Part shown: positions 1 to 14,425 of the stretch, piece after piece | How positions within the stretch are numbered: position 1 is the first letter of the stretch | Layout of the letters: the number at the start of each line of letters is the position of its first letter | IMG/VR virus record: IMGVR_UViG_2537561977_000008 | Origin: a virus | Taxonomy: Duplodnaviria; Heunggongvirae; Uroviricota; Caudoviricetes | Strand: one strand, 5' to 3' | DNA length: 14,425 nt | Position numbers and translations under genes: made by a program | Notes under the pieces: model-generated | The model's database searches: none | What the model saw: the letters and a program-made list of their open reading frames with translations, nothing else | What the model was told of the DNA's origin: nothing

Positions 1-251
1 ACATCCACAATGACGCGCATTACGCCAGCCTGATGGCGGTTATTCGTGAAAAGGAAGAAACACTGAAACAACGCGTGATCCGCGCGCTGGCGGGTTTTTC
101 GGGTTACGGGCGGGTGATGGTTGTCGGTGGCGGGGCGGAGATTGTGGCACCCGCTATCCGCGAAGCCTGCGGAGTTAATGCGACTTTCATCGCGGACGGG
201 GTGCCACAGTTTGCTCTGGTTAATGGGCTGTACGCAATGGACAAGGAGTAA
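1..251 (+). CDS. parM: ParM/StbA-like actin-type plasmid segregation ATPase, C-terminal fragment (5' end lies outside the window)
   Basis: The reading frame is open from the window edge (codon phase from nt 3) to TAA at 249-251. The C-terminus (VMVVGGGAEIV ... FALVNGLYAMDKE) resembles the C-terminal adenosine motif and LVNGMY tail of R1 ParM/StbA as recalled. It is followed directly by a ParR-like gene. Confidence 0.55.
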   Translation, partial: IHNDAHYASLMAVIREKEETLKQRVIRALAGFSGYGRVMVVGGGAEIVAPAIREACGVNATFIADGVPQFALVNGLYAMDKE

Positions 252-255
252 ACCA

Positions 256-567
256 ATGACGACACCAACCAGACGGATAAGTTTCTATCTGAAGCCCGCC
301 GCCGTCAAGAACGAAGGCGAAGCATGCGCCTGGCTGGACAGCCTTACACCAGAAGCCCGCAAAAGTGGTCAACGCGTGGCTTTTCTGGCCGGGCTGGCAC
401 TACTGAAAATGAATCCGGCAGAGGCTTACCGACTGGCTGCATGGGCTGATGATGAGGCGTTATCAGTGACACAAACCAGGACAGAACGCCCCGCGTCACA
501 GCCAGTATCAACCGCACAGATAACCAGTCAGATGGCCGGAAATATCCGGGCGTTATTTCCCGAATAA
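256..567 (+). CDS. parR: ParR-like partition adaptor (centromere-binding protein), 103 aa
   Basis: ATG at 256 with AGGAG 7 nt upstream. The protein (RISFYLKPAAV...LDSLTPEARKSGQRVAFLAGLALL...NIRALFPE) is co-linear with recalled R1 ParR (RTIAFKLNPDV...LDSIPQGERSRLNRAALTAGLALY...NILRSLFPKE). The 148-aa ORF in the track (121-567) is an upstream extension in the same reading frame that overlaps the parM stop region; the real start is 256. Confidence 0.55.
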   Translation: MTTPTRRISFYLKPAAVKNEGEACAWLDSLTPEARKSGQRVAFLAGLALLKMNPAEAYRLAAWADDEALSVTQTRTERPASQPVSTAQITSQMAGNIRALFPE

Positions 568-572
568 CACAA

Positions 573-596
573 CATCAGGGCGCATCCGCCCTGATG
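573..596 (+). terminator. Perfect 10-bp inverted repeat (CATCAGGGCG-catc-CGCCCTGATG) downstream of parR; candidate intrinsic terminator or operator palindrome
   Basis: Read directly from the sequence: a 10-bp GC-rich stem with a 4-nt loop, followed by ACTTTAA (a weak U-tract). It lies between the parR stop (567) and the next start (631). Confidence 0.35.
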
Positions 597-630
597 ACTT
601 TAACCCGGGAGCATAAACAAGGGGGACACA

Positions 631-963
631 ATGCAACACATTGACAGAGAAAAAGCGCAGCGACTGATTGAGCGGATGGAGGCGCTGGCGAAAGAAGAAA
701 ATGTCAACATCCAAAAAATAGCTGAATGTGGCCAGATAGTTCTTCGTCGTGAAAAAGACCTCAAACAACTGATGTCTGGCGAAACCAGCAAAACATGGAC
801 TTCAGGCGAGAAGACGGTTTACTGCAGTTTCTGCAATAAATCCCAGTACGAAGTCACAAAGGTGATTGCCGGACCGTCTGTTTACATCTGCAATGAGTGC
901 GTGGATTTGTGCAATGAAATTATCAGGAAAGAAGTGACAGACAAAAAGGAAAAAAACGCATGA
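631..963 (+). CDS. Small protein (110 aa) with a C-terminal ClpX-type C4 zinc-binding domain; no AAA+ module
   Basis: ATG at 631 preceded by AAGGGGGA. The C-terminal half ([39 protein letters not shown]) is near-identical in motif to the N-terminal zinc-binding domain of ClpX ([39 protein letters not shown], recalled). The N-terminal 60 aa is an unrelated charged helical region. Confidence 0.7.
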
Positions 964-1187
964 ACAGAAAACAGAAACAAGAGTTGAAATACTTCTTACG
1001 TAAAGAAATTGCCAGGCTGGAAGATGTGGAATCTCAATCATCAGAAATTCCGTTCGGAATGGATATCAACGACGCCCGTATGCTTCAGGCATACCGCATA
1101 GCCCTGGCTGCACTACAGAGAAAAGCACCAGACATCAACCCTCGCCAACAGGAAGAACAGGAACAGCACAAAGGAGGCAACCAGTGA
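960..1187 (+). CDS. Hypothetical small helical protein, 75 aa
   Basis: ATG overlaps the upstream stop (ATGA at 960-963), indicating translational coupling. Charged, helical composition; no recognisable family. Confidence 0.45.
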
Positions 1188-1423
1188 GTAATTCAGCACG
1201 ACTACAGCTTGGTTTTTCACCGCTATCAAAAACCATCGTGTTGGCAAAAATGCGTGACTTAGGAGACGGAACAAAACGCCGCGTAGGAAATGATCGCGGT
1301 CGCGATGTAACCAACGGGGCCGCTCAACTCGTTTGGCATCTAGTCATGGCAGAAGGCGGTGAAATTAATTGGGAGCTGGATGATGGTTCTCGTATGATTT
1401 TGAGGGCCGAGAAGAGTAAATAG
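1184..1423 (+). CDS. Hypothetical protein, 79 aa
   Basis: GTG start overlaps the upstream stop (GTGA at 1184-1187) with a strong AAGGAGG 6 nt upstream. No family recognised. Confidence 0.45.
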   Translation: MSNSARLQLGFSPLSKTIVLAKMRDLGDGTKRRVGNDRGRDVTNGAAQLVWHLVMAEGGEINWELDDGSRMILRAEKSK

Positions 1424-1437
1424 CTCAAGGGGGATTA

Positions 1438-1623
1438 ATGCTAAATGATGATGAAGAAGAGCTGCTTATGCAGGAATGGTCGCTCGGTGATTATGATAAT
1501 GGTGAAAATGGGTGCCCGCATTGTGGCCGTTATCGTTTATGTATCTGCCAGAATGGAAAACACAGATGTGAAAAGTGCAATTGGTCTCCGGAACTTAATG
1601 ACTACGTGCCGATCGAGTGGTAG
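1438..1623 (+). CDS. Small Cys-rich putative zinc-ribbon protein, 61 aa
   Basis: ATG at 1438 with AGGGGG upstream. Acidic N-terminus followed by CPHC-x5-CxC-x6-CxxC. Last gene of the four-gene operon. Confidence 0.45.
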   Translation: MLNDDEEELLMQEWSLGDYDNGENGCPHCGRYRLCICQNGKHRCEKCNWSPELNDYVPIEW

Positions 1624-1663
1624 AGGTAAGTCACACTAGGTGTTTTTTAGTTGATTTTATAAA

Positions 1664-1762
1664 TGCACAATAGTGCACAAATTTGCACAATTTTTTTGAA
1701 CGACTTTTTACCCTTCCGGCCTGCGTGGCGGCTGGATCCGTCAAGGATCCGTGCGTGCACAA
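1664..1762. repeat. Four direct copies of TGCACAA in helical phase; candidate protein-binding array (terminase/cosB-like or operator)
   Basis: Copies at 1664-1670, 1674-1680 and 1684-1690 are spaced exactly 10 bp apart; a fourth at 1756-1762 is 72 bp (about 7 turns) further on. The region is AT-rich and non-coding, and also contains a GGATCCGT direct repeat (1734-1741, 1745-1752) and a near-palindromic A7-CGCGC-T5 (1761-1777). Confidence 0.5.
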
Positions 1763-2063
1763 AAAAACGCGCTTTTTCTACGAGCAGGTGACGGGGGAAC
1801 AGCCCGCGTTTCAGGGGGTAAATAGCATTCCCTGAACGATGTCGCAGAGATACAACAGAATGGCTGTATTTCTCACGCTGAGCGTGAAAAAGACGTGAGG
1901 GCTTTTGATTTGATGGGGTGAAAGGTAAGGCCGTCAAAATCGCACTGAGACGGCGAGAATATGCAGTCAACGAGGTGGGATTGCGTAAGAGTCTGACTGT
2001 CGATGATGGCAATCAGCAGGAAAGCGTCGTGAAATTATCTGACTGATACAGGAGCTGGAGAGT

Positions 2064-2088
2064 CGGGGCATAAATTTTTTATGCCCCG
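2064..2088. terminator. Stem-loop (CGGGGCATAAA-ttt-TTTATGCCCCG) 27 nt downstream of the portal stop
   Basis: Read directly: 11-bp stem with a 3-nt loop. No clean U-tract on either strand, so it may be an RNA-stabilising hairpin, a terminator for the leftward Q transcript, or part of cos. Confidence 0.3.
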
Positions 2089-2114
2089 GCGAAGCAGCAG
2101 ACAAGCGAAGCGCG

Positions 2115-3134
2115 TCAGGATGTGGGCTGGGTGTCTAACAGTGCGTAAGGGTTAAAGCGGATCACCTCTTCGCCAAGCCAGTCATTGATGTGCTTCATGG
2201 CCTCCATGACGGGCATCAGCTCGTTAATTGCGTAAACCCGCGCGGCCTTCTCCACATCACCAAACGCACTTTTTTCGCCCGGCATCGCCCCCATCAGTTG
2301 CGGCGGAACGCGGTGCGCAGCCAGCACATCATCACGGGATGCCGCCTTAACATTCATGAACTCATCCTTTGCGGTGATCTGCTGGAACGGCAAAATTTGC
2401 ACCCCCTCTTTGCCCCCGTTGGGCGCATGAATGAGCACGTTTTTAAACGCACCACCACCACGTGCCCCCTGTAGCGTTTCTTTCAGGGAGTCCATGCTTT
2501 CGCGGTTTACCTGCGCTGCACCGATGTAGATGATGCACCCGGCGTGGGATCCGTTGTCGTAGTACAGTTTTCTGAACATGTCCGCCGAATGAGAAAGGCT
2601 GGCCGAGAGTAATGCGCCAAGATATTCCGGCATGCCGTAGATTTCCTGGTTAATATCCGGATTCATCAGGTGGCACACTTTGCCAGGACGAAACTGAAAC
2701 GCATCCTTGCCATCCTGCACATACCACCATGATTCAAGATCGCTTCCGCGTCGCATGTATTTCGCCAGGGCGTGCCGTAATTTAAGCGGTTCGCCGAGCA
2801 TATTGCTCCGAAGCTCAAGGAATGCGTTACCGAACACAAACCAGTCCAGCGCCAGCGCCGAGAAATCCTGCCGGGAAAGCAGCGGGTGCGGAATATAGCA
2901 GCCGAGCAATACATTGCGCTTAAAGTAAAGCGCAGACTGATGCCAGGACGTTTGCCGGGCAGCTCTTGCCAGACCGTACCAGTCCACCGGGGTTTCATAC
3001 CACCGCCCGTTATCAGCACAGTACATATTGTCCAGCAGGTCATGCCCGGTCAGGCGGTAAGGACCATCAAATGTGAATGCACTGAGCGACGATTCTTTCC
3101 TGAGCGCATCAGCGAGATCAATGCGTGAACTCAT
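2115..3134 (-). CDS. Q: Portal protein (P2 gpQ-like), 340 aa
   Basis: Long minus-strand ORF. The start is chosen at the internal ATG (MSSRIDLADAL...) so that it does not overlap the upstream terminase gene. Size and position (downstream of terminase large, next to the cos-side end) match P2 Q. Confidence 0.85.
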   Translation of the reverse strand: MSSRIDLADALRKESSLSAFTFDGPYRLTGHDLLDNMYCADNGRWYETPVDWYGLARAARQTSWHQSALYFKRNVLLGCYIPHPLLSRQDFSALALDWFVFGNAFLELRSNMLGEPLKLRHALAKYMRRGSDLESWWYVQDGKDAFQFRPGKVCHLMNPDINQEIYGMPEYLGALLSASLSHSADMFRKLYYDNGSHAGCIIYIGAAQVNRESMDSLKETLQGARGGGAFKNVLIHAPNGGKEGVQILPFQQITAKDEFMNVKAASRDDVLAAHRVPPQLMGAMPGEKSAFGDVEKAARVYAINELMPVMEAMKHINDWLGEEVIRFNPYALLDTQPTS

Positions 3135-3159
3135 GCGCACTTTTTTATTTTTCTGCTCA

Positions 3160-4912
3160 TCAGAACTCCATAACCGTGAAACGCTCGTTTTCTCCTTCGC
3201 CGCCAATCGGTTCGTTAATGACAGCAAGCATGGTTGCCCACGCAAGGTCGCCGTGGCTGATCCCCCTCGCGCGGTCCGTTTCGTAAGTGATAAAACCGCC
3301 CGGTGTTTTCACCTTACGCACGGCGTTAAAGGCCGCAACCAGCTCGCGTTCGGCGCGATCGTATTCCCACCGCCCGGCACGCATTATTTGCAGCATTTTC
3401 AGTACCAGCGACCGTTTTGATGACAGCGTGAAGGTGTAAGGGATGGCGGCGGGAAAAAACCGTTTCACTATCTGATAGACGGCATCCCCGTGCCCGCCCG
3501 TCGCATCAATGCCGATGTGTTCCACGTTGTAGCGATACGTGAACTCTTCAATAACTCTGGCCTGCTCTTCAAAATTCCAGCCCCTGAACGCGTCGCGTCT
3601 CCACCGTTCTGAAACGACTACCAGGAACAGCCGGAGGAACCACCACGGACACAGCGCCGCTGTCGCCGTTACCACTGCTGCCGTTTGCGTCATACCCAAT
3701 CCATACCGGACGATTCCCCATCGGGCGGGGGGCAAAGGGTTTCCAGTCTTTCCAGTCGTCGTATCCGTCAACACCGCAGCCAATCAGGATATTCAGGTTA
3801 AATGCCGATTCCCCTTCGCGGACAAACTCACACATATAGAGATTGCGGAACTCGTCTTCGGTGTTTTCATCACGAATTTCATCAATATCGGTGTGTTTCC
3901 AGCCGTGATTAACCACATCTTCCAGCGTGACAATTTGCCGCCACGTCCGGTCAGGGCAGATAAGCCCGTTATGCAGCGTTTTCCAGTCCACAGAAAAACG
4001 CTGGCGTTTATGCGCGGCCTTTTTCTCGTTCCAGCGGTCGCCGTTCCAGTAGGCGTATGCCTCGTGCGTTTCGGTGGATGGCGTGGAGAAGCAGGTGCGC
4101 CGCAGTCCGCTGAGGGTTGCCATAGCGCCAGCCACCTTGCGCAGTTCAGCAAAGCGACTGACCCAGAAAAATTCATCAAAATAAAAATTGCCCGTGTAAG
4201 ATTGCGCCGTCGCAGCAGAAGTGCCGAGAAAATGCATCTCTGCGCCGTTGGAGAGGATGATTTTATCGCCCCCTTTCAGCTCCACATCGACTTCAGCCGC
4301 GGCCTTCTGAATAATGCTTTTAAACTGGAACGCCTGACGACGCGACGCAGACAAAAAAATCTGGTTACACTGGTAAGGTTGTGCCACATCGTCACGCAGC
4401 GCCATCAGCAGTGCTTCCTGTGCAAAATACCAGGTCGCCCCAATCTGTCGGGATTTCAGGATCATCCTGTTACGTATCCCGGCTTCCCTGCAAAGCGTCA
4501 GGGAGTCAAACCAGCCCCGCTGATGCCACTCCAGCCTGCTGATGATTTTTTCCCGCAGTGCGGCAATCTGTTCCGGCGTGAAATGATTTTTGAGTTTTTT
4601 CGCCCGGCCTTTCTTTCCTGTGGCCGTCGCATCCGGCTGGCCATCATGCAGTTTTTTAAGCTGCCGGGTCAGCAGGTCTATTTCCTTAAAGTCACCACCT
4701 GTTTTATTCTGTTTTTCAGTAAGCTGGATGAGGCGCGCATCGATGGACTGCGTGACACGCTGCACGGGTGGCGTTTCATCCCACTGGTCGCGTTTTTTCC
4801 ACGCATAAATCGTGTTCGGGTTTATTCCCATCAGACGTGATATTTCTGCGGGCGGATAACCCTGCCAGTAAAGTTGCCGCGCACGCTGGCGCACAAAAGC
4901 GTCCTGAATCAT
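3160..4912 (-). pseudogene. P: Terminase large subunit (P2 gpP-like ATPase/nuclease), split into two frames by a 1-nt indel in a homopolymer run
   Basis: The N-terminal 447-aa ORF (3569-4912) matches recalled P2 P (ILKSRQIGATWYF, NQIFLSAS, FLGTSAATAQSY, FSTPST, NRPVWIGYD). The C-terminal 207-aa ORF (3160-3783, other frame) carries the rest (YNVEHIGIDATG...HGDLAWATM...MEF). The frames switch at the CCCC run on the + strand at 3581-3584. Confidence 0.85.
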
Positions 4913-5073
4913 TGCTCCCCCTGAGTAATTACAGGAAGATTACCCGCGCGCGAAACCGTTCTCCTTAACCCCCTGTTCTGGCCGTTTTCTTACAACAAAA
5001 GCCCTTTGTATCAGCCTGTTACGCTTTGCCATCATGACTGAAGAACCAGTCAGAGGGGCAAAAACTATGGCTA
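4913..5073. promoter_or_regulatory. Divergent intergenic region between P (leftward) and O (rightward); expected site of activator-dependent late promoters
   Basis: 161 bp between divergent morphogenesis operons, as in P2 where the Ogr-dependent P and O promoters lie here. A partial dyad TGT-N15-ACA is at 4974-4994. No clear sigma70 -35 element, consistent with activator dependence. Confidence 0.4.
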
Positions 5074-5904
5074 ATGAAAAAAGAGACATCCCGCAAAAAG
5101 TTTCGCGTGGCTGTCTCCGGATCAACTGTTGATGGCCGTGAAATCAGTCCGGTGCATCTGCGTGAAGCCGCCGAGAACTTCAACCCGGATGTTTACGCTG
5201 CCCGCGTGAACGTTGAGCACTATCTCTCGCCATGCCCGTCAAGCGAATTTTCCGCAATGGGCGATGTCACCGCACTGAGTACGGAAGACATTACGGAAGG
5301 TCCGCTGGCCGGACGTACTGCGCTGTATGCAGAAATCGAACCGACCGAGCGCATGAAGCAGCTTGTCGCGGACGGCAAGAAAATCTATTCCAGTATCGAA
5401 CTGCACCCGCAGTTCTCCGTTAACGGGCGCGCCTATCTGGTCGGGCTGGCGATGACCGACACCCCGGCAAGCCTGGGCACTGAGCGCCTGAAATTCACGG
5501 CACAGCAACGTCAGGCGGTGATGACGTTCAACAGTATCCAGGGTGAAGCACCGCTTATCTCCGAAGCCATCGAGTCTGAAATCATCGAAATGGCAGAACA
5601 ACGCCAGGAAGAAGGCACCCAGTGGTTTAACCGCGTAATGGGGATTATTGGTCGTGGCCGCAAAGCGGATGACGCCAGTTTCTCCCGTATTCAGGAAGCG
5701 GTGGAAAGCGTCGCAACGTCACAGGCCGACATTATCGACCGTTTTAATGCGCTGGAAACACGCCATCAGCAGGACAGCCAGAAAATCACTTTACTGACCA
5801 CGGAGCTGACAGCACTGAAGGAAAAACTGCGCACGCAGGACGGCGATCCGCAGAACCGGTTCACCGCAACGGGCGCAGCCTCCGACCAGCTGGCTGACTT
5901 CTGA
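5074..5904 (+). CDS. O: Capsid scaffolding protein (P2 gpO-like), 276 aa
   Basis: The N-terminus (KKFRVAVSGSTVDGREISPVHLREAAENFNP ... YLVGLAMTDTPASLGTE) is co-linear with recalled P2 gpO. The ATG at 5067 is out of frame and stops after 20 codons, so 5074 is the start. Confidence 0.85.
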   Translation: MKKETSRKKFRVAVSGSTVDGREISPVHLREAAENFNPDVYAARVNVEHYLSPCPSSEFSAMGDVTALSTEDITEGPLAGRTALYAEIEPTERMKQLVADGKKIYSSIELHPQFSVNGRAYLVGLAMTDTPASLGTERLKFTAQQRQAVMTFNSIQGEAPLISEAIESEIIEMAEQRQEEGTQWFNRVMGIIGRGRKADDASFSRIQEAVESVATSQADIIDRFNALETRHQQDSQKITLLTTELTALKEKLRTQDGDPQNRFTATGAASDQLADF

Positions 5905-5927
5905 TAAGACAAAGGAGCAAATTTTTT

Positions 5928-6977
5928 ATGAATCTGGTGATGTCAGATATTACCCGCAACAAGCTGGGTTGCTATATGGCGCAGCAGGCGTCGCTTAACA
6001 ATATCCCGGTTTCTGCACTGGTATCGCGATTTACCGTGGAACCTGCGGTGCAGCAACGTTTTGAAAACGCCTCAAAGGATAGCACCGAACTTACAAAAAA
6101 TTAACGTGATCGGCGTGACCGACCAGAAAGGCGAAAAATCCTCCTGGACACCACAGGACCGATTGCACGCACAAATACCAGTTATGACGGAACAAAACGC
6201 CGTAACCCGAATAACGTGGTTGATCTGAAAAACCGCAAATACCAGTGCGAACAGGTGAGCTACGACACGTTTATTTCGTATCCGCAGCTTGATGCCTGGT
6301 CGGCACACAGCGATTTTCAGTCCCGCATCAGCGCACAGATTGCCCGACAGGTGGCACTTGACCGCATCATGATCGGTTTCAACGGCACATCTCACGCGGA
6401 TGAGTCCAACTTCAGCACCAACAAGCTGCTTCAGGACGTTAACGTGGGGTGGCTGGAGCACATCAGAACCAATGCCAGCGAGCGCGTAATGAATGACGTG
6501 ACGCTGACTTCCCGCAACATGGACAACACCGTGGCGCACGCGGGTAAATACGCGAACCCTGATGCACTGGTACAGGACGCGCGCTCATCTCTGCTGGATG
6601 AATGGCACAAGGAAGCTGACGACCTCGTGGTGATTATGGGGCGCAACCTGTTTAACTCGCTGCGTCTGCCAGTGCTGAACAGCATCAGCGGCCAGAATCC
6701 CAATGCGGAATTACTTGCCGGGCAGCTCATCCTGTCATCGCGCACCATTGGCGGGCTGGGTGTGTTCCTTGCACCGTTCTTCCCGGATGCAACGATGCTG
6801 ATCACCTCATTCAACAACCTGTCGATTTACTGGCAGAAAGGTTCAATGCGTCGTCTGATGAAAGACGAACCGGAATACAACCGCATCGCCACCTACCAGT
6901 CCATCAATGACGCTTATGTCGTTGAAGACTATGGCAAGTGCGCGATGGTCACTGGCCTGAAGTTCGCCGACAGCTAA
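5928..6977 (+). pseudogene. N: Major capsid protein (P2 gpN-like) with two compensating 1-nt indels in A-runs 38 nt apart
   Basis: AAGGAG sits 10 nt before ATG 5928. Frame 0 reads MNLVMSDITRNKL...FTVEPAV then hits TAA at 6102-6104. The +1 frame carries INVIGVTDQKGEK (P2: INIVPVSEMKGEK), and frame 0 resumes with ILLDTTGPIARTNTS...KYQCEQ... through to 6977. The shifts are at A6 (6095-6100, one A too many) and A5 (6134-6138, one A too few). Confidence 0.85.
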
Positions 6978-6986
6978 TCAACTCAC

Positions 6987-7005
6987 GGCGGGCATCATGC
7001 CCGCC
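6987..7005 (+). terminator. GC-rich hairpin (GGCGGGCA-tca-TGCCCGCC) immediately after the major capsid gene; candidate partial terminator or mRNA stabiliser
   Basis: Read directly: 8-bp stem with a 3-nt loop, 10 nt after the capsid stop, with no U-tract. A common arrangement for keeping capsid mRNA above downstream terminase mRNA. Confidence 0.4.
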
Positions 7006-7022
7006 TGTAACGGAGAGAAAAA

Positions 7023-7828
7023 ATGATTACTCCTGCACAGCAACACTGGCAGAACGTGATGGCACAGCGCGCAGGCCGGGCGAATGAAGGTGTGGACCAC
7101 GCCGCGCGTACCGCGCATGAAGAGGTGCTGTATCGTCTGCGTCTGGCACAGGCCCGGCTTAAGGGCGTACAGGCCAGAAGCGCGAAAGCCGACATCAAAA
7201 AAGCGTTGTTGCCGGACTTTTCCGGCTGGATTGAGGGAACGCTGGAGGCTGACGCGGGCAACAGGACGAAGTGATTGCCACGCTGATGGTGTGGGCGATT
7301 GACTGCGGCGATCTTCCGCTTGCGCTGCGTATTGGTGCGTATGCGGTCCGTCACAACCTCATCATGCCGGATAACTTTGGCCGTACTGCTGCCACAGTGC
7401 TGACCGAAGAAATCTGCAATCCGGTACTGACGCAGGCCGGGACGGATGCCGACGCGGATTTGTCCGTCTTTATCGAACCACTGGACACACTTTGGGAAAT
7501 TGTCGCCAACCAGGATATGCCGGACGAAGTGCGCGCCAAATTATGCAAGGCGTGCGCCTTTGCCCGCCGTGGCCTGAGCGATGCGGACAGCATGGCCTCA
7601 TCACTGAAGCTGCTGCGCGAAGCGATGCATCTGAACCAGAACGCAGGTGTGAAACGCGAGATTGCAACCCTTTCCCGCGCCCTGAAAAAAGCCGATTCCG
7701 CAGCCGCACCAGAAGACGCCAGCGCACAGCAGGCGCAGGACGAAAGCAGCGAAAGTAAAAAGACAACGCGGAAGCCTGCAACACGAAAACCACCGCGACG
7801 CAGAAGGCGAAGCGCGGTTAACGACTGA
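7023..7828 (+). pseudogene. M: Terminase small (endonuclease) subunit (P2 gpM-like), frameshifted by a 1-nt deletion
   Basis: GGAG is 7 nt before ATG 7023. ORF 7023-7274 (MITPAQQHW...LEADAG) continues in the -1 frame as QQDEVIATLMVWAIDCGDL...DMPDEVRAKL... to 7828. This is co-linear with recalled P2 M (MTSPAQRHM...GKGAQDDILMTVMLW...ADMPDEVRAKL). The shift is at the GGG run at 7256-7258. Confidence 0.8.
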
Positions 7829-7837
7829 CCCCGTCAG

Positions 7838-7908
7838 CGGGCGGCGTGCGCGGTGTTCCGGTTTGGCTCCGTGACCGTTTACACCGCGCACCCACCGCCC
7901 GATTTTTT
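7838..7908 (+). terminator. Large interrupted stem-loop followed by a T6 tract between M and L; candidate intrinsic terminator or attenuator
   Basis: Left arm CGGGCGG-c-GTGCGCGGTG (7838-7855) pairs with right arm CACCGCGCAC-cca-CCGCCCG (7882-7901): 17 bp with one internal bulge and a 26-nt loop. It is followed by ATTTTTT (7902-7908), then the RBS GGAG for L. Confidence 0.45.
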
Positions 7909-7922
7909 CAGGAGTGAACCCC

Positions 7923-8418
7923 ATGAGTATGGTTGCCAGAACTGAACCCGGCCCCGCAGAGGACGACATCACCGACACCGAAGATGGCGATACCCGTATT
8001 TCAGCGGGTGCATTCTGGCCGGATATTGTGCTGCGCGAGCTGCGTCTGGCGGTACGACGTGCCGGGCCGCGTGACCACCTCCCGCCTGCTGCATACCGCC
8101 ACCGGGGCCGTGGCACACGTTACCCGCGAGCCGGAAGCATGGCAGCAGGAACAGCAGGCGGCTGGCCATCAGACGCTGGCCGATGTTCCGGCACCCGTAA
8201 TTAACGGAGAAAGCGTCAATCTCTGGCACTGGCGCAATGCTGTTTATACCGCCACACGCGCCCTGATTCTGGAGCGTTACCGCGATGCGGACACAACGGA
8301 CAAGGGCGACCGCCGGGCGGACGCACTGGATATACAGACATCGGATTTGTGGCGCGATGTGAGCTGGGCCATCTCTGACATTCTGTGCCGCCCGCGAATC
8401 TTTGCGGAGTTGTGCTGA
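7923..8418 (+). pseudogene. L: Head completion/stabilisation protein (P2 gpL-like), frameshifted
   Basis: The N-terminal frame (…FWPDIVLRELRLAV) matches P2 L (FFPDIDPKRVRERMRLEQTV). The C-terminal two-thirds lies in the +1 frame (…LADVPAPVINGESVNLWHWRNAV...ERYRDADTTDKGDRRADALDIQTSDLWRDVSWAI...; P2: LADVPADDIDGESIKVFYYERAV...ERYRGVDATAKGDKKADSIDSTIDELWRDMRWAV). The frame switch is somewhere in 8050-8085. Confidence 0.75.
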
Positions 8419-8613
8419 TGAAAGTGAAGGCACTGGAAGGCGACACCGTGGATTCGCTCTGTTTCCGGTACTACGGCACGACGCAGGGCGTCACCGAAAA
8501 GGTGCTGGATGCCAACCCCGGACTCTGCCGACAGGTATTTCTGGAAGCCGGACAGGAGGTGGAAATGCCGGAGTCGGAGAAGAAAACAACGAGAGATGAT
8601 ACAGCTATGGTAA
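8418..8613 (+). CDS. X: Tail protein X (P2 gpX-like); as given it reads through in frame into the holin, and a 1-nt insertion in an A-run is suspected
   Basis: ATG 8418 overlaps the L stop (TGATG). MKVKALEGDTVDSLCFRYYGTTQGVTEKVLDANPGL matches recalled P2 X (MKTFALQGDTLDAICVRYYGRTEGVVETVLAANPGL). The expected C-terminus (…EMIQLW, stop TAA 8611-8613 overlapping the holin ATG) is in the +1 frame after the AAAA run at 8582-8585. Confidence 0.55.
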
Positions 8614-8909
8614 CAGGTTTTTTTCAGCGGGTGAGTGACTGGATCACCTTCTGGGCATCAGTCACAGCCACCACAATAGGCGTGATGACCATCAGTGAAA
8701 AAATCGCCCTTGCCGGGTTGTTACTCGGTTCTCTGTCTGCATTACATGCCTGGCGACATCGCCGCCTGATGGAAACCGCCATGCAGCGTCGCAATGAACT
8801 CATCGCCAGTATCCTGGCGCAGTCAGACGCACGGCCACTTCACGACAGTGAGCGTCAGGCTCTGAACATTCTGCGGGATAACGATACACATGATAAAGCT
8901 GCCCGTTAA
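8607..8909 (+). CDS. Class II holin (two TM segments; pinholin-like), about 100 aa
   Basis: ATG 8607 sits in an ATGGTAA overlap with the presumed X stop. There are two hydrophobic segments (WITFWASVTATTIGVMTI and IALAGLLLGSLSALHAW) followed by a highly charged C-terminal tail. It lies immediately upstream of a SAR-type endolysin. Confidence 0.6.
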   Translation: MVTGFFQRVSDWITFWASVTATTIGVMTISEKIALAGLLLGSLSALHAWRHRRLMETAMQRRNELIASILAQSDARPLHDSERQALNILRDNDTHDKAAR

Positions 8910-9456
8910 ACGTTACGCCGTAGCCGCCATTGTGGCGCTGGGGTTCTCCATTGCCCCTCACAAACTCCGGACCAGCCCGGAAGCGCAAATCCGCATTGCC
9001 ACATGGGAGGACTGTCGCGCAACGCCTTACCGGGATATTGCCGGGGTAATGACCGTGGGGTGCGGCTCGACCGGGCATGTGGAAAATCGTCTGTACACCG
9101 AAACGGAAGTCGCCGGGCGCTGGGTTAATGATATGCAACATGCAGAAAACTGCATAAATCAGAACTTCAGCGGCAACGCCATGCCACAGTCCGCGTTTGA
9201 GGCAATGACAGATGCCGCCTTTAATCTTGGATGCAGAAATCTTATGTGGTTCAGGGATAAGAACCGTAACTACCACCGCACCACTATCTGGAAACATGCA
9301 CAGGCGCACAACTGGCCTGACATGTGCAACAGACTGACTGACTTCGTGAACAGCGGCGGCGAACGCTCACAGGGACTGGTTAACCGTCGTACTGATTTTC
9401 GTGCATGGTGCTTACGTGACACCGGAGGCCAGTCAAGAAAGTGCGTTACATCCTGA
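8890..9456 (+). CDS. SAR endolysin, glycoside hydrolase family 24 (T4/lambda-R type lysozyme), 188 aa
   Basis: N-terminal signal-anchor-like hydrophobic stretch (YAVAAIVALGFSIA) followed by the GH24 catalytic signature E...D...T (ATWEDCRATPYRDIAGVMTVGCGSTGH). This is not the P2 gpK type. Confidence 0.8.
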   Translation: MIKLPVKRYAVAAIVALGFSIAPHKLRTSPEAQIRIATWEDCRATPYRDIAGVMTVGCGSTGHVENRLYTETEVAGRWVNDMQHAENCINQNFSGNAMPQSAFEAMTDAAFNLGCRNLMWFRDKNRNYHRTTIWKHAQAHNWPDMCNRLTDFVNSGGERSQGLVNRRTDFRAWCLRDTGGQSRKCVTS

Positions 9457-9908
9457 TGATGGCACTGACCGTCCTCACGCTGCTGACCATAACACTCTGG
9501 CAGACATTCAGACTGGGGCAGGAAGACGGACACAACCGTTATACACAGGCGCAACTGGACGATTACAGCCGGACCCTGAAAGAGGCCGGCACCATCATCA
9601 GCACCGCATCCGGTGTACTGCGTGACGTCATGACAGCGCGCCAGAACCGACAACAGGAAGGGGAAATCCGACGTGAACAGCTACGCAACGATATCACGAC
9701 AGATGCATGTGCCCGCGCTGTTCCTGACGCTCGCTTTACTGAGCGGTTGCACCAGCACGCAGAACGCGTCCGCGCCGCCGCCGTCGTTCCGTTTCATCCC
9801 GGAAGGGCTGACCGCCCCCGTACTTCCCCCGCCGTTTCCGGTGACGCCATCATGGGGAAACATCGGGATATGGAGCGACAGCCTCATGGACGCACTGGAA
9901 ACCTGTAA
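9441..9908 (+). CDS. i-spanin (Rz/LysB-like inner-membrane spanin subunit)
   Basis: N-terminal TM helix (ILMMALTVLTLLTITLW) followed by a charged periplasmic region. The o-spanin gene is embedded in its 3' half in another frame. The start could be GTG 9441 (GGAGG upstream) or ATG 9456. Confidence 0.6.
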   Translation: MRYILMMALTVLTLLTITLWQTFRLGQEDGHNRYTQAQLDDYSRTLKEAGTIISTASGVLRDVMTARQNRQQEGEIRREQLRNDITTDACARAVPDARFTERLHQHAERVRAAAVVPFHPGRADRPRTSPAVSGDAIMGKHRDMERQPHGRTGNL

Positions 9909-9993
9909 CGCCGATAAGCGGGCCATTGAATTACTGGAACAGCGCAGGCTGCAACGACTGAACAACGAGGACAACAACCATGCTGAAAACTGA
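9673..9993 (+). CDS. o-spanin (Rz1/LysC-like outer-membrane lipoprotein), overlapping the i-spanin gene
   Basis: Lipoprotein signal with lipobox (FLTLALLSGC), a Pro-rich mature region, and the typical overlapped architecture inside and extending past the i-spanin gene. An alternative start is ATG 9703. Confidence 0.65.
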   Translation: MNSYATISRQMHVPALFLTLALLSGCTSTQNASAPPPSFRFIPEGLTAPVLPPPFPVTPSWGNIGIWSDSLMDALETCNADKRAIELLEQRRLQRLNNEDNNHAEN

Positions 9994-10446
9994 TTCCCTG
10001 CGTGAAGCCATGACCCGTTCATGCCGGTGGTGTCATGCCAACCCGGAAAAATTCACCATTTTCGTGGAGAGCGGCAACATTGAAACGACCGGAGAAACCC
10101 CATCGTTTGTTTACCGCTATCAGATAGTGATGTTTGTCATGGATTACGCCGGAGAGCTGGACGACCTCACGCTGCCGCTGCTGGCGTGGTTATCCGAAAA
10201 TCAGCCACAGTTGTTGCTCAATCCGGAGCGTAATCAGGACATCAAATTTTCCGCCGTTATCAATGACGATGACAGCGCCGATCTCCTGTTTACGCTCCCC
10301 CTGCGGGAACGCGTTCGCATCACGCGCAGCAGTCAGGGCACACCGCAGGCAGAACACCTGCCGGAGCCAAAACCCCGCCTGCCCTCTTCCGAAGGCGACT
10401 GGTCGCATGTATTCCAGGATGTGACGTGGGGGAAAGCGATGGATAA
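9980..10446 (+). CDS. R: Tail completion protein R (P2 gpR-like); as given it reads through into S, probably because of a 1-nt deletion in a G5 run
   Basis: The N-terminus (MLKTDSLREAMT...KFTIFVESGNIETT...LPLLAWLSENQP) matches recalled P2 R. As given, the frame continues without a stop into the S-like sequence (one 364-aa ORF, 9980-11074). Adding one G to the run at 10428-10432 would end R at TAA 10444-10446, overlapping the S ATG (ATGGATAA). Confidence 0.6.
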
Positions 10447-11074
10447 GGCATTCACCCGCGTGGATGAAACCTTTGAGGCTATCCGCGACAGCCTGAATCA
10501 GCAGGCCATTAATAACATCGCCAGAAAGCTGGCACAGGATTTACGCCGCGCCCAGCAGGCGCGTATCCGGTCACAGAAAGCGCCGGACGGGACCGCATGG
10601 ACACCACGCAGACGCCGCGTAACCCGGATACAGGAGCGCATTCGCTTTATCTGGAATAACGAAGCACGCACGCTGAAAAACTGGCATCACGACACGGGGA
10701 AATACGGGCGAACCATCACCGGGTGGGATGAGGATAAAAACAATATCCGCACGTTTTACCGGGATGACATCGACCGTTTTCTGGAAATACGCACCCGGCG
10801 CATCAACCAGGACAGCACCAGGCGCGTCTCCATGTTCGTAAAACTGCGCACCGCCCGCTACCTGAAAGCCCGTGCAGATGCTTCCGGTGTGACGGTGGGT
10901 TACAGCGGCGTGGCCGCACGTATTGCACGCGTTCATCAGTTCGGTGAGCGCGATCAGGTTGCGCCGGGCATTTTCACCGATTACCCGGTACGTGAGCTGC
11001 TGGGTATCAGCCAGGCAGATGAGCGCCTGATTTATAACACGGTGCTGGGCAGGATTGCGGAGGCTGTACGATGA
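10439..11074 (+). CDS. S: Tail completion / virion morphogenesis protein S (P2 gpS-like)
   Basis: Internal ATG at 10439. The C-terminal region (…VGYSGVAARIARVHQFGERDQVAPG...YPVRELLGIS) is typical of the phage virion morphogenesis (gpS) family. The stop overlaps the V start (ATGA at 11071). Confidence 0.6.
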   Translation: MDKAFTRVDETFEAIRDSLNQQAINNIARKLAQDLRRAQQARIRSQKAPDGTAWTPRRRRVTRIQERIRFIWNNEARTLKNWHHDTGKYGRTITGWDEDKNNIRTFYRDDIDRFLEIRTRRINQDSTRRVSMFVKLRTARYLKARADASGVTVGYSGVAARIARVHQFGERDQVAPGIFTDYPVRELLGISQADERLIYNTVLGRIAEAVR

Positions 11075-11652
11075 GCGCAGAACTCATGCGACTGCTGAGC
11101 AATATCATCCGCACCGGGATCATCTCTGAAGTTGATGAGGAATCCTGGTGCGTGCGCGTTCGCAGCGGCGAACTGGAAACAGGCTGGCTGCGCTGGAACA
11201 CCACGCGCGCGGGAGACTTCAACGTGTGGTTTCCGCCATCACCAGGCGAACAGGTGGCAATTGCCTGCATCGGCGGCAACCCGGAAACCGCCATGATAAT
11301 CGGCAGCCTGTGGAGTGATGCCATTCCGGCACCCGGCAAAAGCCTGAAAGAAATCGTGGTCAGCGCGCCGGACGGCGCGGTGTTCCGCTACGACGCGGAC
11401 GCAGGCGCACTGAGCGCAAGCGGCATGAAAACGGCCACTTTGCAGGCATCCATCAGCGTGACACTGAACACGCCTGTCGTGGAATGCACAGACCTTCTGA
11501 GAACAGCGACGCTTGACGTCACAAAAGGGGGAACGATGAGCGGCAATATCACGCACAGCGGCGGCGATTTCACCTCAAACGGCATCACAGTGCATACGCA
11601 TAAGCACGGTGGCGTTAAAGGTGGCAGCGATTCGACAGGAGGCCCGCAGTGA
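11071..11652 (+). CDS. V: Baseplate assembly / spike protein V (P2 gpV-like), 193 aa
   Basis: IRTGIISEVDEE...FPPSPGEQVAIACIGG...KGGTMSGNITHSGGDFTSNGITVHTHKH matches recalled P2 V (IRTGIIVETD...APSVGEQVLILAVGG...KGGTMRGNIEHTGGELSSNGKVLHTHKH). Confidence 0.85.
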   Translation: MSAELMRLLSNIIRTGIISEVDEESWCVRVRSGELETGWLRWNTTRAGDFNVWFPPSPGEQVAIACIGGNPETAMIIGSLWSDAIPAPGKSLKEIVVSAPDGAVFRYDADAGALSASGMKTATLQASISVTLNTPVVECTDLLRTATLDVTKGGTMSGNITHSGGDFTSNGITVHTHKHGGVKGGSDSTGGPQ

Positions 11653-11999
11653 CAACCCGCTACACAGGAATGAACCCGGACGGGACGGGAAACCTGAACG
11701 ATATGGCGCACCTGAAACAGTCAGTCAGGGACATCCTGACCACCCCGCTGGCAAGCCGGGTTATGCGACGGGAATATGGCAGCCTTGTGCCTGATTTGAT
11801 TGACGAACCCATGAATAACACCACGCGTCTGCAATGCATGAGTGCTACCGTGATTGCACTGACACGATGGGAACCACGCATTGCCCTGAACGCCATCGAC
11901 GTTGTCTGGAAGGCAGGAGGCCACGCCGGGGTGACGCTGTCGGGCACTGTCATGCAGACCATGCAGAATGTTGAATTAACCATCACGCTGAGGGAGTAA
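11649..11999 (+). CDS. W: Baseplate protein W (P2 gpW / gp25-like), 116 aa
   Basis: GTG start overlaps the V stop (GTGA). Size and position between V and J match P2 W. Confidence 0.8.
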   Translation: MTTRYTGMNPDGTGNLNDMAHLKQSVRDILTTPLASRVMRREYGSLVPDLIDEPMNNTTRLQCMSATVIALTRWEPRIALNAIDVVWKAGGHAGVTLSGTVMQTMQNVELTITLRE

Positions 12000-12002
12000 A
12001 TC

Positions 12003-12899
12003 ATGCCTGCCGTTGACCTTTCCCAGTTACCGGAACCCGCCATCATCGCGGAGCCTGACTTTGAGGCAATTCTGGCTGACACAAAGGCCATGATGATTGC
12101 AGCTTATCCCGCCGAACAGCGTGAAGTCGTCTCCGCCGCACTGGAACTGGAATCGGAACCCCTGAACGTTATCGCTCAAACCATGTCGTTTCGTGAAATG
12201 CTGTTACGCCAGCGGGTCAATGAGGCCGCACGCGCCTGCATGTTGAGCCACAGCGCCGGAACAGACCTGGACAACCTCGCGGGCAATATGAACACAAAGC
12301 GCCTGGTTATCACTCCGGCAACGGATACCACCGACGTGGTGATGGAGAACGACACCTCGCTGAGACTGCGGGCGCAGCGGGCGTATGACGGCCTGAGTGT
12401 TGCAGGCCCGTCAGGCGCATACGAGTATTTTGCCCGCAGCGCCAGCGGTCTGGTGCGCGATGCGCGGGCCATCAGTCCGTCTCCGGCAAATGTGACGGTT
12501 TCCATCCTGTCCACTGAGGGCGACGGCACAGCAACGGAGGCGTTGCTTAATACCGTTCGCGCCGTTCTGAATGCAGAGGATACCCGCCCGGTGGCCGACC
12601 GCCTGACCGTACAGAGTGCCAGAATCGTGACATGGCGGCTGAATGCAAAACTGTACTTTTACCCCGGTCCGGAATCCGAACCTATTCTGGCTGCGGCTGA
12701 ATCGTCGTTCAGGAAGTGGCTGGCTGAGCAGGGGCTTATCGGTCAGGACGTGGCGTTGTCCGCCATTGCTGCCGCACTGCATGTGCACGGTGTGCAACGC
12801 GTGGAGATAATCGAACCCACACAGAATATGGCCATCAGCGACATACAGGCGGCGCGCTGTGAGTCATTCACCATCAGCGAAGGTGGGCGTAATGAGTAA
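12003..12899 (+). CDS. J: Baseplate assembly protein J (P2 gpJ-like), 298 aa
   Basis: AGGGAG RBS upstream. Size and synteny (V-W-J-I) match P2 J. Confidence 0.85.
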   Translation: MPAVDLSQLPEPAIIAEPDFEAILADTKAMMIAAYPAEQREVVSAALELESEPLNVIAQTMSFREMLLRQRVNEAARACMLSHSAGTDLDNLAGNMNTKRLVITPATDTTDVVMENDTSLRLRAQRAYDGLSVAGPSGAYEYFARSASGLVRDARAISPSPANVTVSILSTEGDGTATEALLNTVRAVLNAEDTRPVADRLTVQSARIVTWRLNAKLYFYPGPESEPILAAAESSFRKWLAEQGLIGQDVALSAIAAALHVHGVQRVEIIEPTQNMAISDIQAARCESFTISEGGRNE

Positions 12900-13422
12900 T
12901 TCACTGTTACCACCATCAGCCAGCAATTTCATGCGTTGTGCCGAAGCCGTCGGAACACGCATTACAGACATTCCGGCAGACCTCAACACGCTGTGGTCGC
13001 CGGACACCTGCCCGGTGCATCTGCTGCCTTATCTCGCCTGGGCGTTTTCCGTTGACCGCTGGGATCGCAACTGGCCGGAAGAGACAAAGCGACAGGTGAT
13101 TCGTGATGCATGGCTGATACACCGACACAAAGGAACCATCAGCGCCCTGCGACGGGCCATTGAGCCGCTGGGATACCTCATTCGCGTGTCTGAGTGGTGG
13201 GAGTTCAACGGCGAACCCGGAACATTCAAGATTGATGTTGGCACGCTGGACAGTGGCGTGACGGAGGAAATGTATCTGGAAATGGAGCGGTTGATTGCTG
13301 ATGCCCGCCCGGTCAGCCGCCACATGACAGGGCTGAATATCATTCAGGAGATTCAGGGAGATATTTTCGCGGCAGCAGCAACTTACGACGGTGAAGTCAT
13401 TACCATTTATCCGGACGATTAA
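12892..13422 (+). CDS. I: Tail/baseplate protein I (P2 gpI-like), 176 aa
   Basis: Start is taken at ATG 12892, overlapping the J stop (MSNSLLPPSASNF...), rather than the longer in-frame ORF start at 12859. Size and synteny match P2 I. Confidence 0.8.
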   Translation: MSNSLLPPSASNFMRCAEAVGTRITDIPADLNTLWSPDTCPVHLLPYLAWAFSVDRWDRNWPEETKRQVIRDAWLIHRHKGTISALRRAIEPLGYLIRVSEWWEFNGEPGTFKIDVGTLDSGVTEEMYLEMERLIADARPVSRHMTGLNIIQEIQGDIFAAAATYDGEVITIYPDD

Positions 13423-13424
13423 GC

Positions 13425-14425
13425 ATGAGTACCACAACACGAAAATTTAAAACCATTATCACCGATACGGGTGCAAAAAATTAGCGCAGGCAACCGCGCC
13501 AGATGGGAAACCTGTCCGCCTGACACATATGGCCGTGGGTGACGGCGGCGGTACTTTACCCACGCCAGACAGTAAGCAGACCCGTCTTGTGCATGAGGTG
13601 TGGCGACATACCGTTAATCGCGTCACCCTGGACGCAACACATCAGAACCACATTATTGCGGAGCTGGTTATTCCTCCTGAAACGGGCGGATTCTGGATCC
13701 GGGAAATTGGTGTGTTTGATGAGCACGGCGATTTGATCGCGGTAGGCAATACTGCCGAAAGTTACAAGCCAACCGTTGCCGAAGGATCCGGACGTGCACA
13801 AACATTTCGCACCATTCTGACCGTATCCAGCACTGCCACTGTGGCGCTTACCGTGGATAACACCATGGTGATGGCCACAGTGAATTACGTGGATGACAAA
13901 CTGAAAGAGCATGAACAGTCACGACGTCACCCGGACGCCTCGCTGACCGCAAAAGGCCTTGTCCAGCTCAGCAACGCCACCAACAGCACGTCTGAAACGC
14001 TGGCAGCGACACCAAAAGCCGTTAAGGCAGTAATGGATGAAACGAACAAGAAAGCCCCATTAAACAGCCCGGCACTGACCGGAACGCCAACAACACCAAC
14101 TGCGCGACAGGGAACGAATAATACCCAAATCGCAAGCACGGCTTTCGTTATGGCTGCGATTGCCGCACTTGTAGACTCTTCGCCTGATGCACTGAACACA
14201 CTGAACGAGCTGGCGGCGGCGCTGGGCAACGACCCGAATTTTGCGACCACCATGACTAACGCGCTTGCGGGTAAGCAACCGAAAGATGCCACTCTGACGG
14301 CGCTGGCGGGGCTTGCTACTGCGGCAGACAGGTTTCCGTATTTTACGGGGAATGATGTCGCCAGCCTGGCAACCCTGACAAAGTCGGGCGGATATTCTTG
14401 CGAAATCGACCGTTGCCGCCGTTAT
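13425..14425 (+). pseudogene. H: Tail fibre protein H (P2 gpH-like), N-terminal part; 3' end outside the window; frameshifted by homopolymer deletions
   Basis: ATG 13425 gives MSTTTRKFKTIITDTGAKN then stops at TAG 13482-13484. The -1 frame continues as LAQATAPDGKPVRLTHMAVGDGGG...IAELVIPPETGGFW...HEQSRRHPDASLTAKG...LAATPKAVK... to the window end, closely matching recalled P2 H. The shift is at the A6 run at 13475-13480. The last ~30 nt show two more single-base losses (ACAAAG and GGGCGG versus the expected ACAAAAG and GGGCGGG). Confidence 0.8.

Follow-up and report, generated by a model that had tools for sequence, protein, structure and literature searches.

Probable consensus errors behind late-gene frameshifts in a P88-like prophage contig of Escherichia coli LT-68

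Escherichia phage P88 and its relatives (Xuanwuvirus, Peduoviridae) belong to the P2 family of phages, and prophages of this kind are common in E. coli. Here, we report the analysis of a 14,425-nucleotide stretch of viral DNA (IMG/VR record IMGVR_UViG_2537561977_000008; hereafter, the window, meaning this stretch at its full length), which by sequence comparison is part of an ordinary P88-like prophage, and in which nine late genes (Q, P, O, N, M, L, X, R, and H) look broken by frameshifts. Judged from the alignments set out below, these frameshifts very probably reflect errors in a draft-assembly consensus rather than changes in the prophage itself. As a set they almost certainly represent no real biological feature, and the finding is an ordinary one.

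The window (positions 1 to 14425) is the whole of contig ADUP01000048.1 in draft assembly GCA_000188815.2 of Escherichia coli LT-68. An exact-protein look-up with a 364-amino-acid open reading frame (9980 to 11074) led to this contig, and the match was established by the coordinates of that gene, by an allele of the capsid gene N specific to the window, and by the final 120 bases; two proteins of the contig (EFZ57400.1 and EFZ57412.1) are labelled Escherichia coli LT-68. It is a stand-alone contig, not a slice of a chromosome, and both of its ends lie inside phage genes (parM on the left and the tail-fibre gene H on the right). Genes follow in the order par genes, accessory genes, Q and P (both on the minus strand), O-N-M-L-X, lysis genes, R-S-V-W-J-I, and the start of H.

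In a megablast search against phage records, the window was 96.2% identical to P88 over 89% of its length, with similar values for other P88-like phages; this identity was measured on the 14.4-kb window only, the rest of the prophage lying on other contigs. P88 proteins placed on the window with tblastn fell in the conserved P2-family order, and the annotations of P88 and of the E. coli FDAARGOS_943 prophage (below) are colinear with it. Pfam hits on the contig genes included P2-type head families (Phage_portal, Terminase_6N/6C, Phage_GPO_N, Phage_cap_P2, Phage_term_smal, and Phage_GPL) and P2-type tail families (Phage_tail_X, P2_Phage_GpR, Phage_tail_S, Phage_base_V, GPW_gp25, Baseplate_J, Tail_P2_I, and Phage_tail_fib). 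Gene order and the Pfam families of the late genes are thus common to P88 and the window prophage, whereas the lysis cassette is a different module (window 8607 to 9908; P88 8798 to 9914). In the window it consists of a 100-amino-acid open reading frame, a lysozyme-family (PF00959) enzyme, and a 157-amino-acid Rz-like gene, and in P88 of holin and anti-holin genes, an M15 peptidase endolysin, and a DUF2570 protein (only 44% identical). Neither the P88 holin nor its M15 endolysin had a tblastn match in the window, and the distinct cassette makes up much of the 11% that P88 leaves uncovered.

Matches to the window were found in 2,400 of 5,426 complete E. coli genomes, at up to 6 places per genome. 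The relative used as reference here, the prophage of E. coli FDAARGOS_943 (NZ_CP065615.1, positions 8744 to 23177), is 99.8% identical over 100% of the window and 9 bp longer, and all of the window genes are annotated in it at full length.

Differences from an intact relative

Base-by-base alignment of the window with the FDAARGOS_943 locus (rebuilt from five pairwise alignments) gave 22 differences, namely, 13 indel events and 9 substitutions, all within window positions 3147 to 14391; the two prophages are otherwise organized alike. The indels comprised 10 deletions (two of them of 2 bases) and 3 one-base insertions, for a net change of −9 bp. A first reading of the sequence (hereafter, the original prediction) had counted at least ten single-base breaks at homopolymers, insertions as well as deletions, in P, N, M, L, X, R, and H. 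That count proved a correct lower bound, with all ten listed breaks present and both kinds of event represented. Its description of the breaks as single base and as lying in or next to mononucleotide runs holds for most events; it fails for the 2-base deletions in N (A8 to A6) and X (A6 to A4), and for the G inserted in L at 8059, which is not in a run. It had not listed the frameshifts in Q and O, a second frameshift in M (7786 to 7789), or a substitution at 9436 that affects both a stop and a start codon.

The 22 sites were compared at sequence level in four of eight relatives, P88, Citrobacter phage Shae_phiSM, FDAARGOS_943, and the complete genome CP044191.1. All 13 indels and 7 of the substitutions are absent from P88, Shae_phiSM, and FDAARGOS_943; once CP044191.1 is added, 12 of the 13 indels and 7 of the 9 substitutions remain private to the window. 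The two remaining substitutions, at 11332 (in V, S88P) and 12426 (in J, H142Y), are common to P88 and CP044191.1 and are therefore ordinary polymorphisms. None of the 12 private indels occurred in any other assembly searched, and exact-pattern scans for the N allele of the window gave no match in the species-representative genomes or among IMG/VR viral contigs. At N, a segment of 451 nucleotides in the window measures 454 nucleotides in the top eight of the E. coli genomes listed, and none of the 1,094 genomes that carry the segment matches it above 99.1%. Across 153 billion recorded gene positions, a 447-amino-acid fragment of P and a 188-amino-acid read-through form of the lysozyme turned up nowhere but in this contig.

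The uniformity of the relatives bears on one reading in which the genes would still be expressed, by programmed or phase-variable frameshifting at slippery runs. Read on the coding strand, most of the altered sites are indeed runs of A or G. About a thousand E. coli genomes are nevertheless single frame at the N segment and at the junction of R and S, the FDAARGOS_943 prophage is intact with no need of frameshifting, and the reading would have to cover thirteen sites in nine genes, two of them insertions outside runs. We regard it as hardly credible and, given the intact homologues, effectively refuted.

Indels were strongly concentrated in runs. Runs of at least 5 bases cover 2.7% of the sequence and contain eight of the 13 (P = 3e-10); the corresponding counts are 9 of 13 for runs of at least 4 bases and 7 of 13 for runs of at least 6, with P ranging from 4e-9 to 8e-11 across thresholds. 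Beyond position 3141, 7 of the 22 runs of at least 6 bases are altered. Deletions outnumber insertions 10 to 3, and the A8 run and one of the A6 runs are each shorter by two bases. By base, 6 of 23 A runs and 1 of 12 T runs are altered, too few events to interpret.

Consensus error weighed against mutation

The frameshifts would be explained if the consensus had miscounted bases, mainly by undercounting A, T, and G runs and with a few stray bases or miscalls in addition, presumably at places covered by few or poor reads. The prophage beneath would then most likely be an intact, ordinary P88-like member of the P2 family, essentially that of FDAARGOS_943. The opposite reading is that about a dozen true frameshifts in the nine late genes named above record a real and very recent pseudogenization, leaving a cryptic, non-inducible remnant. 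In its favor, the sequence as deposited unquestionably contains the breaks, and spontaneous indels in E. coli also favor mononucleotide runs (PMC8510543). The proportions of the two kinds of change argue against it. The window has 7 private substitutions in 14.4 kb against 12 private indels, the reverse of what neutral decay leads one to expect; neutral decay that produced 12 indels should have brought substitutions in several-fold excess over indels. In a lineage control, FDAARGOS_943 and CP044191.1 differ by 2 indels and 20 substitutions (Fisher P = 6e-4 against the 12:7 of the window). Counting substitutions only, the identity between the contig and intact relatives is 99.95%.

Even an indel-prone host falls short of this proportion. 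In mismatch-repair-deficient E. coli, the natural state most prone to indels among those with good data, 5,324 indels and 30,061 substitutions were recorded, an indel share of 15% (PMC8510543), and at that fraction the probability of at least 12 indels among 19 changes is 2.4e-6. A mismatch-repair mutator host was accordingly considered and rejected, the indel fraction of the window being far above the 15% of the deficient lines; in addition, 3 of the 7 private substitutions are transversions. As a sign of selection, the private substitutions are uninformative: 5 of 7 are non-synonymous, but the control pair also differs mostly by non-synonymous changes.

The distribution of the lesions among genes and along the contig also speaks against recent inactivation. 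Several genes are altered two or three times though one lesion would have been enough, with no sign of selection; the window carries no insertion sequence (IS) element and no deletion larger than 2 bp; and two deletions lie within the last 46 nucleotides at the 3' contig end, where reads would become fewer and poorer (P = 0.002 for at least 2 of 19). The 12 indels found in no other assembly point the same way. On the other side, the shortened G run in R (G5) is present in two complete genomes, and CP044191.1 has a broken P and IS elements, so that some decay does occur in the lineage. On balance, real pseudogenization is unlikely. The original prediction had left open sequencing error or very recent inactivation, having noted that the protein sequence flanking each shift is conserved on both sides, which argues against long-term decay. 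That observation is correct; of its two alternatives, error is the one supported, and the spectrum and privacy of the changes argue against the other. Its further statement, that the prophage is a non-inducible cryptic remnant, was made on the condition that the breaks are real, and this is most likely not the case.

In a variant of this reading, the real frameshifts would stem from a burst of frameshift mutagenesis that struck runs and was limited to the late operon, for example through error-prone synthesis of the Pol IV type during repair of a broken prophage, with the G6-to-G5 change in R coming first and relaxing selection on the rest. Such an event, which we hold to be highly improbable, would have left an almost substitution-free yet thoroughly inactivated prophage.

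Position along the contig bears on consensus error itself. The first 3,146 nucleotides of the window show no difference from FDAARGOS_943, seven runs of 6 to 7 bases included, and all 22 differences lie from the Q/P junction onward (P of about 0.009 under a uniform spread of the 19 private differences). This unevenness could also come from an artefact of another sort, in which the consensus was drawn from a mixture (collapsed near-identical P2-like copies, a contaminant, or an induced phage). A contig made of phage DNA only, ending in parM and in the variable gene H, is typical of breaks at repeat boundaries, and single E. coli genomes have up to 6 matching places. A second copy should nevertheless have left its own alleles, and the private substitution alleles match no relative examined; a collapsed repeat, moreover, raises read depth and should lower the rate of homopolymer error. 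As an explanation in its own right a mixture is very unlikely, although a mixed or thin template may have contributed to the consensus errors.

Homopolymer consensus error remains the preferred reading, and several points weigh against it. With about 1.7 errors per kb (over 11.3 kb), the contig is error-rich for a consensus, and low depth would be needed to account for this. No error at all falls in the first 3,146 nucleotides, and the distribution along the contig is uneven. Seven private substitutions and two insertions outside runs are not classic homopolymer errors. The G6-to-G5 change in R is common to two independent complete genomes, and so not everything is private noise. Finally, the case for error is made from the deposited consensus sequence.

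The cause would probably be sequencing chemistry (pyrosequencing) combined with low local coverage. We infer pyrosequencing from the age of the record: the whole-genome shotgun prefix ADUP and the EFZ protein accessions date to about 2011, when E. coli drafts were commonly pyrosequenced. The signature error of pyrosequencing is the miscounting of homopolymers. The original prediction had proposed an error of long-read or pyrosequencing type; the latter is the better fit, and long reads are unlikely for accessions of that era. Errors of this sort are a standard concern in the field, and Scholz et al. (2016; PMC4746626) had to verify run lengths by Sanger sequencing. Among other platforms, methylation-motif miscalls of nanopore reads were considered and rejected; only 1 of the 9 substitution sites adjoins a CCWGG motif, and nanopore sequencing came too late for a record of this age.

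Lesions and intact genes along the contig

Consequences for each gene were read from the start codons of the reference. Within the left stretch without differences (1 to 3146) lie the end of parM, a parR-like gene (256 to 567), a ClpX-type zinc-finger gene (631 to 963), small open reading frames, an intergenic region, and most of Q; its four small genes are protein-identical to those of FDAARGOS_943. In the portal gene Q (2115 to 3160, minus strand), a T6 run is reduced to T5 at 3148 to 3152 (an A run on the coding strand), and so the frame shifts at codon 5 and a stop follows after 9 codons; an in-frame ATG remains at codon 10. Just downstream of the Q stop, on the minus strand, lies a perfect G+C-rich hairpin with a T/A-rich loop (2064 to 2087; GGGGCATAAATTTTTTATGCCCC), which has the look of a bidirectional terminator (predicted) and is identical in FDAARGOS_943.

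The large terminase gene P (3160 to 4912, minus strand) has an insertion that turns A3 into A4 at 3571 to 3574 and splits it into fragments of 447 and 102 amino acids, the longer covering 447 of 583 residues. The original prediction had found this break and placed it 10 nucleotides away, at the C4 run 3581 to 3584. P also carries two private substitutions, at 3619 (G432S) and 4369 (R182C). In the scaffold and protease gene O (5067 to 5904, plus strand), an extra G inside an A7 run at 5083 (A7-GAC to A6-GAGAC) breaks the frame after codon 5 and leaves 21 codons. An ATG at 5074 restores an open reading frame of 276 amino acids, which the gene caller annotated (MKKETSRKK...) with an altered N terminus and not as a pseudogene.

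Two run deletions were found in the major capsid gene N (5928 to 6977, plus strand), A8 to A6 at 6095 to 6100 (2 bases) and A6 to A5 at 6134 to 6138, both at the runs that had been predicted. Together they are net −3, with a stop directly after codon 57 and the frame regained 13 codons later, and the product read from the start is 58 of 350 amino acids. Since the stop comes directly after the first deletion, the net −3 pair gives no functional rescue. Compensating frameshifts were considered on the grounds that N and H are each net −3, and were rejected because of this immediate stop. A private substitution in N lies at 6259 (N112S).

In the small terminase gene M (7023 to 7821, plus strand), GG is reduced to G at 7254, shifting the frame after codon 77 (83 of 266 amino acids), and an A5 run is reduced to A4 at 7786 to 7789, near the C terminus. 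The first of these breaks had been predicted and assigned to GGG at 7256 to 7258, a run 2 to 3 nucleotides away that is unchanged. The head completion gene L (7923 to 8418, plus strand) loses its frame after codon 45 through the G inserted at 8059 (CGAC[G]TGCC, outside any run), which lies inside the interval 8050 to 8085 to which this break had been bracketed; private substitutions in L lie at 7952 (synonymous) and 8132 (L70P). Tail protein gene X (8418 to 8613, plus strand) has the 2-base deletion A6 to A4 at 8583 to 8586, one base off the predicted run (8582 to 8585); its last 9 amino acids are replaced, and it is fused to the next open reading frame (8607 to 8909), which is itself intact.

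The other lysis genes (8890 to 9908, plus strand) are the lysozyme (8890 to 9438) and the Rz-like gene (9435 to 9908). They overlap in an ATGA in which the substitution 9436 T>A changes the lysozyme stop from TGA to AGA, giving the 188-amino-acid read-through (a 6-codon extension), and changes the start of the Rz-like gene from ATG to AAG; a GTG at 9441 is a possible substitute start.

In R (9980 to 10446, plus strand), the change from G6 to G5 at 10428 to 10432, located as predicted, removes the last 4 amino acids and fuses R in frame to S (10439 to 11074, plus strand), for a joint product of 364 amino acids; the ATG of S is preserved despite the fusion, and S has a synonymous substitution at 11051. 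The baseplate and tail genes V, W, J, and I (11071 to 13422, plus strand) are full length and, with S, the holin-like open reading frame, and the four left-hand genes, are intact. The tail-fibre gene H (13425 to 14425, plus strand), which is cut by the contig end, is left with 19 codons by three deletions that sum to −3, A7 to A6 at 13475 to 13480, A4 to A3 at 14380 to 14382, and GGG to GG at 14390 to 14391; the original prediction had located the first at the same run and the other two near 14385 to 14400.

Related records and comparison with known classes

The shortened G run in R is the only one of the indels found elsewhere. The G5 allele and an identical 364-amino-acid R-S protein occur in CP044191.1 and CP026802.1 (at 10439 to 10463 in the extracted loci of both). 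Among the fetched loci, G6 at this junction is found only in FDAARGOS_943, and G5 in 3 of the 4 assemblies of the sub-lineage; the shorter G run is absent from all 1,036 complete E. coli genomes in RefSeq that carry the junction. The change may be a real allele of one sub-lineage, or else different platforms may have repeatedly undercalled this run, the one most prone to error. In CP026802.1, every late gene apart from the R-S fusion is full length. In CP044191.1, besides R-S, only P is also broken, likewise by a change from G6 to G5 of its own (locus position about 3743; 480 against 583 amino acids). Both G6 runs of the region are thus shortened in CP044191.1 and none of its 27 long A or T runs, a pattern that resembles a platform-specific undercall of G runs or could be a real, inherited allele. 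The same locus holds pairs of IS3-family transposase genes in the region of the tail-fibre and tail-fibre-assembly genes (15889 to 20005).

Frameshift artefacts seem to be common in public P88-like records. In Xuanwuvirus P884B11 (NC_049391.1, 4229 to 5266), the annotation reduces the major capsid gene to a 489-bp piece and adds a spurious open reading frame in reverse orientation, and the records of phages 503458 and 500465-2 (NC_049341.1 and NC_049343.1) list "terminase large subunit (x3)."

The frameshifts of the LT-68 contig have little biological importance and make a clean worked example of an old draft contig that mimics a cryptic prophage. Nine essential phage genes look broken, and GenBank lists the fragments as separate LT-68 proteins (for example, EFZ57400.1 and EFZ57412.1), so that counts of pseudogenes, defective prophages, or "novel fusion proteins" taken from such assemblies would mislead. 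Prophage decay should be called only after checking the ratio of indels to substitutions, whether the changes are confined to a single assembly, and where they lie with respect to contig ends. If the lesions were real, LT-68 would carry a freshly inactivated P2-like prophage, of modest interest for the study of prophage domestication. Any remaining interest may lie only in whether the R-S fusion allele of the related complete genomes is real.

Two known classes can be set beside the contig. Cryptic prophages of E. coli and Shigella have several broken morphogenesis genes, as does the window as deposited; they decay by frameshifts, IS insertions, and deletions, and the spectrum of the window is unlike such neutral decay. 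The second class is homopolymer error in pyrosequencing, semiconductor, and early long-read drafts, a source of false frameshifted "pseudogenes," from which the window differs in a density (about 1.7 per kb over 11.3 kb) above that usual for a consensus and in its 3.1-kb error-free stretch. It shares with this class indels concentrated in runs and more frequent with run length, an excess of deletions, more indels than substitutions, privacy to one assembly, and some errors close to a contig end. On every testable criterion, as far as sequence comparison goes, the frameshift set fits homopolymer consensus errors.

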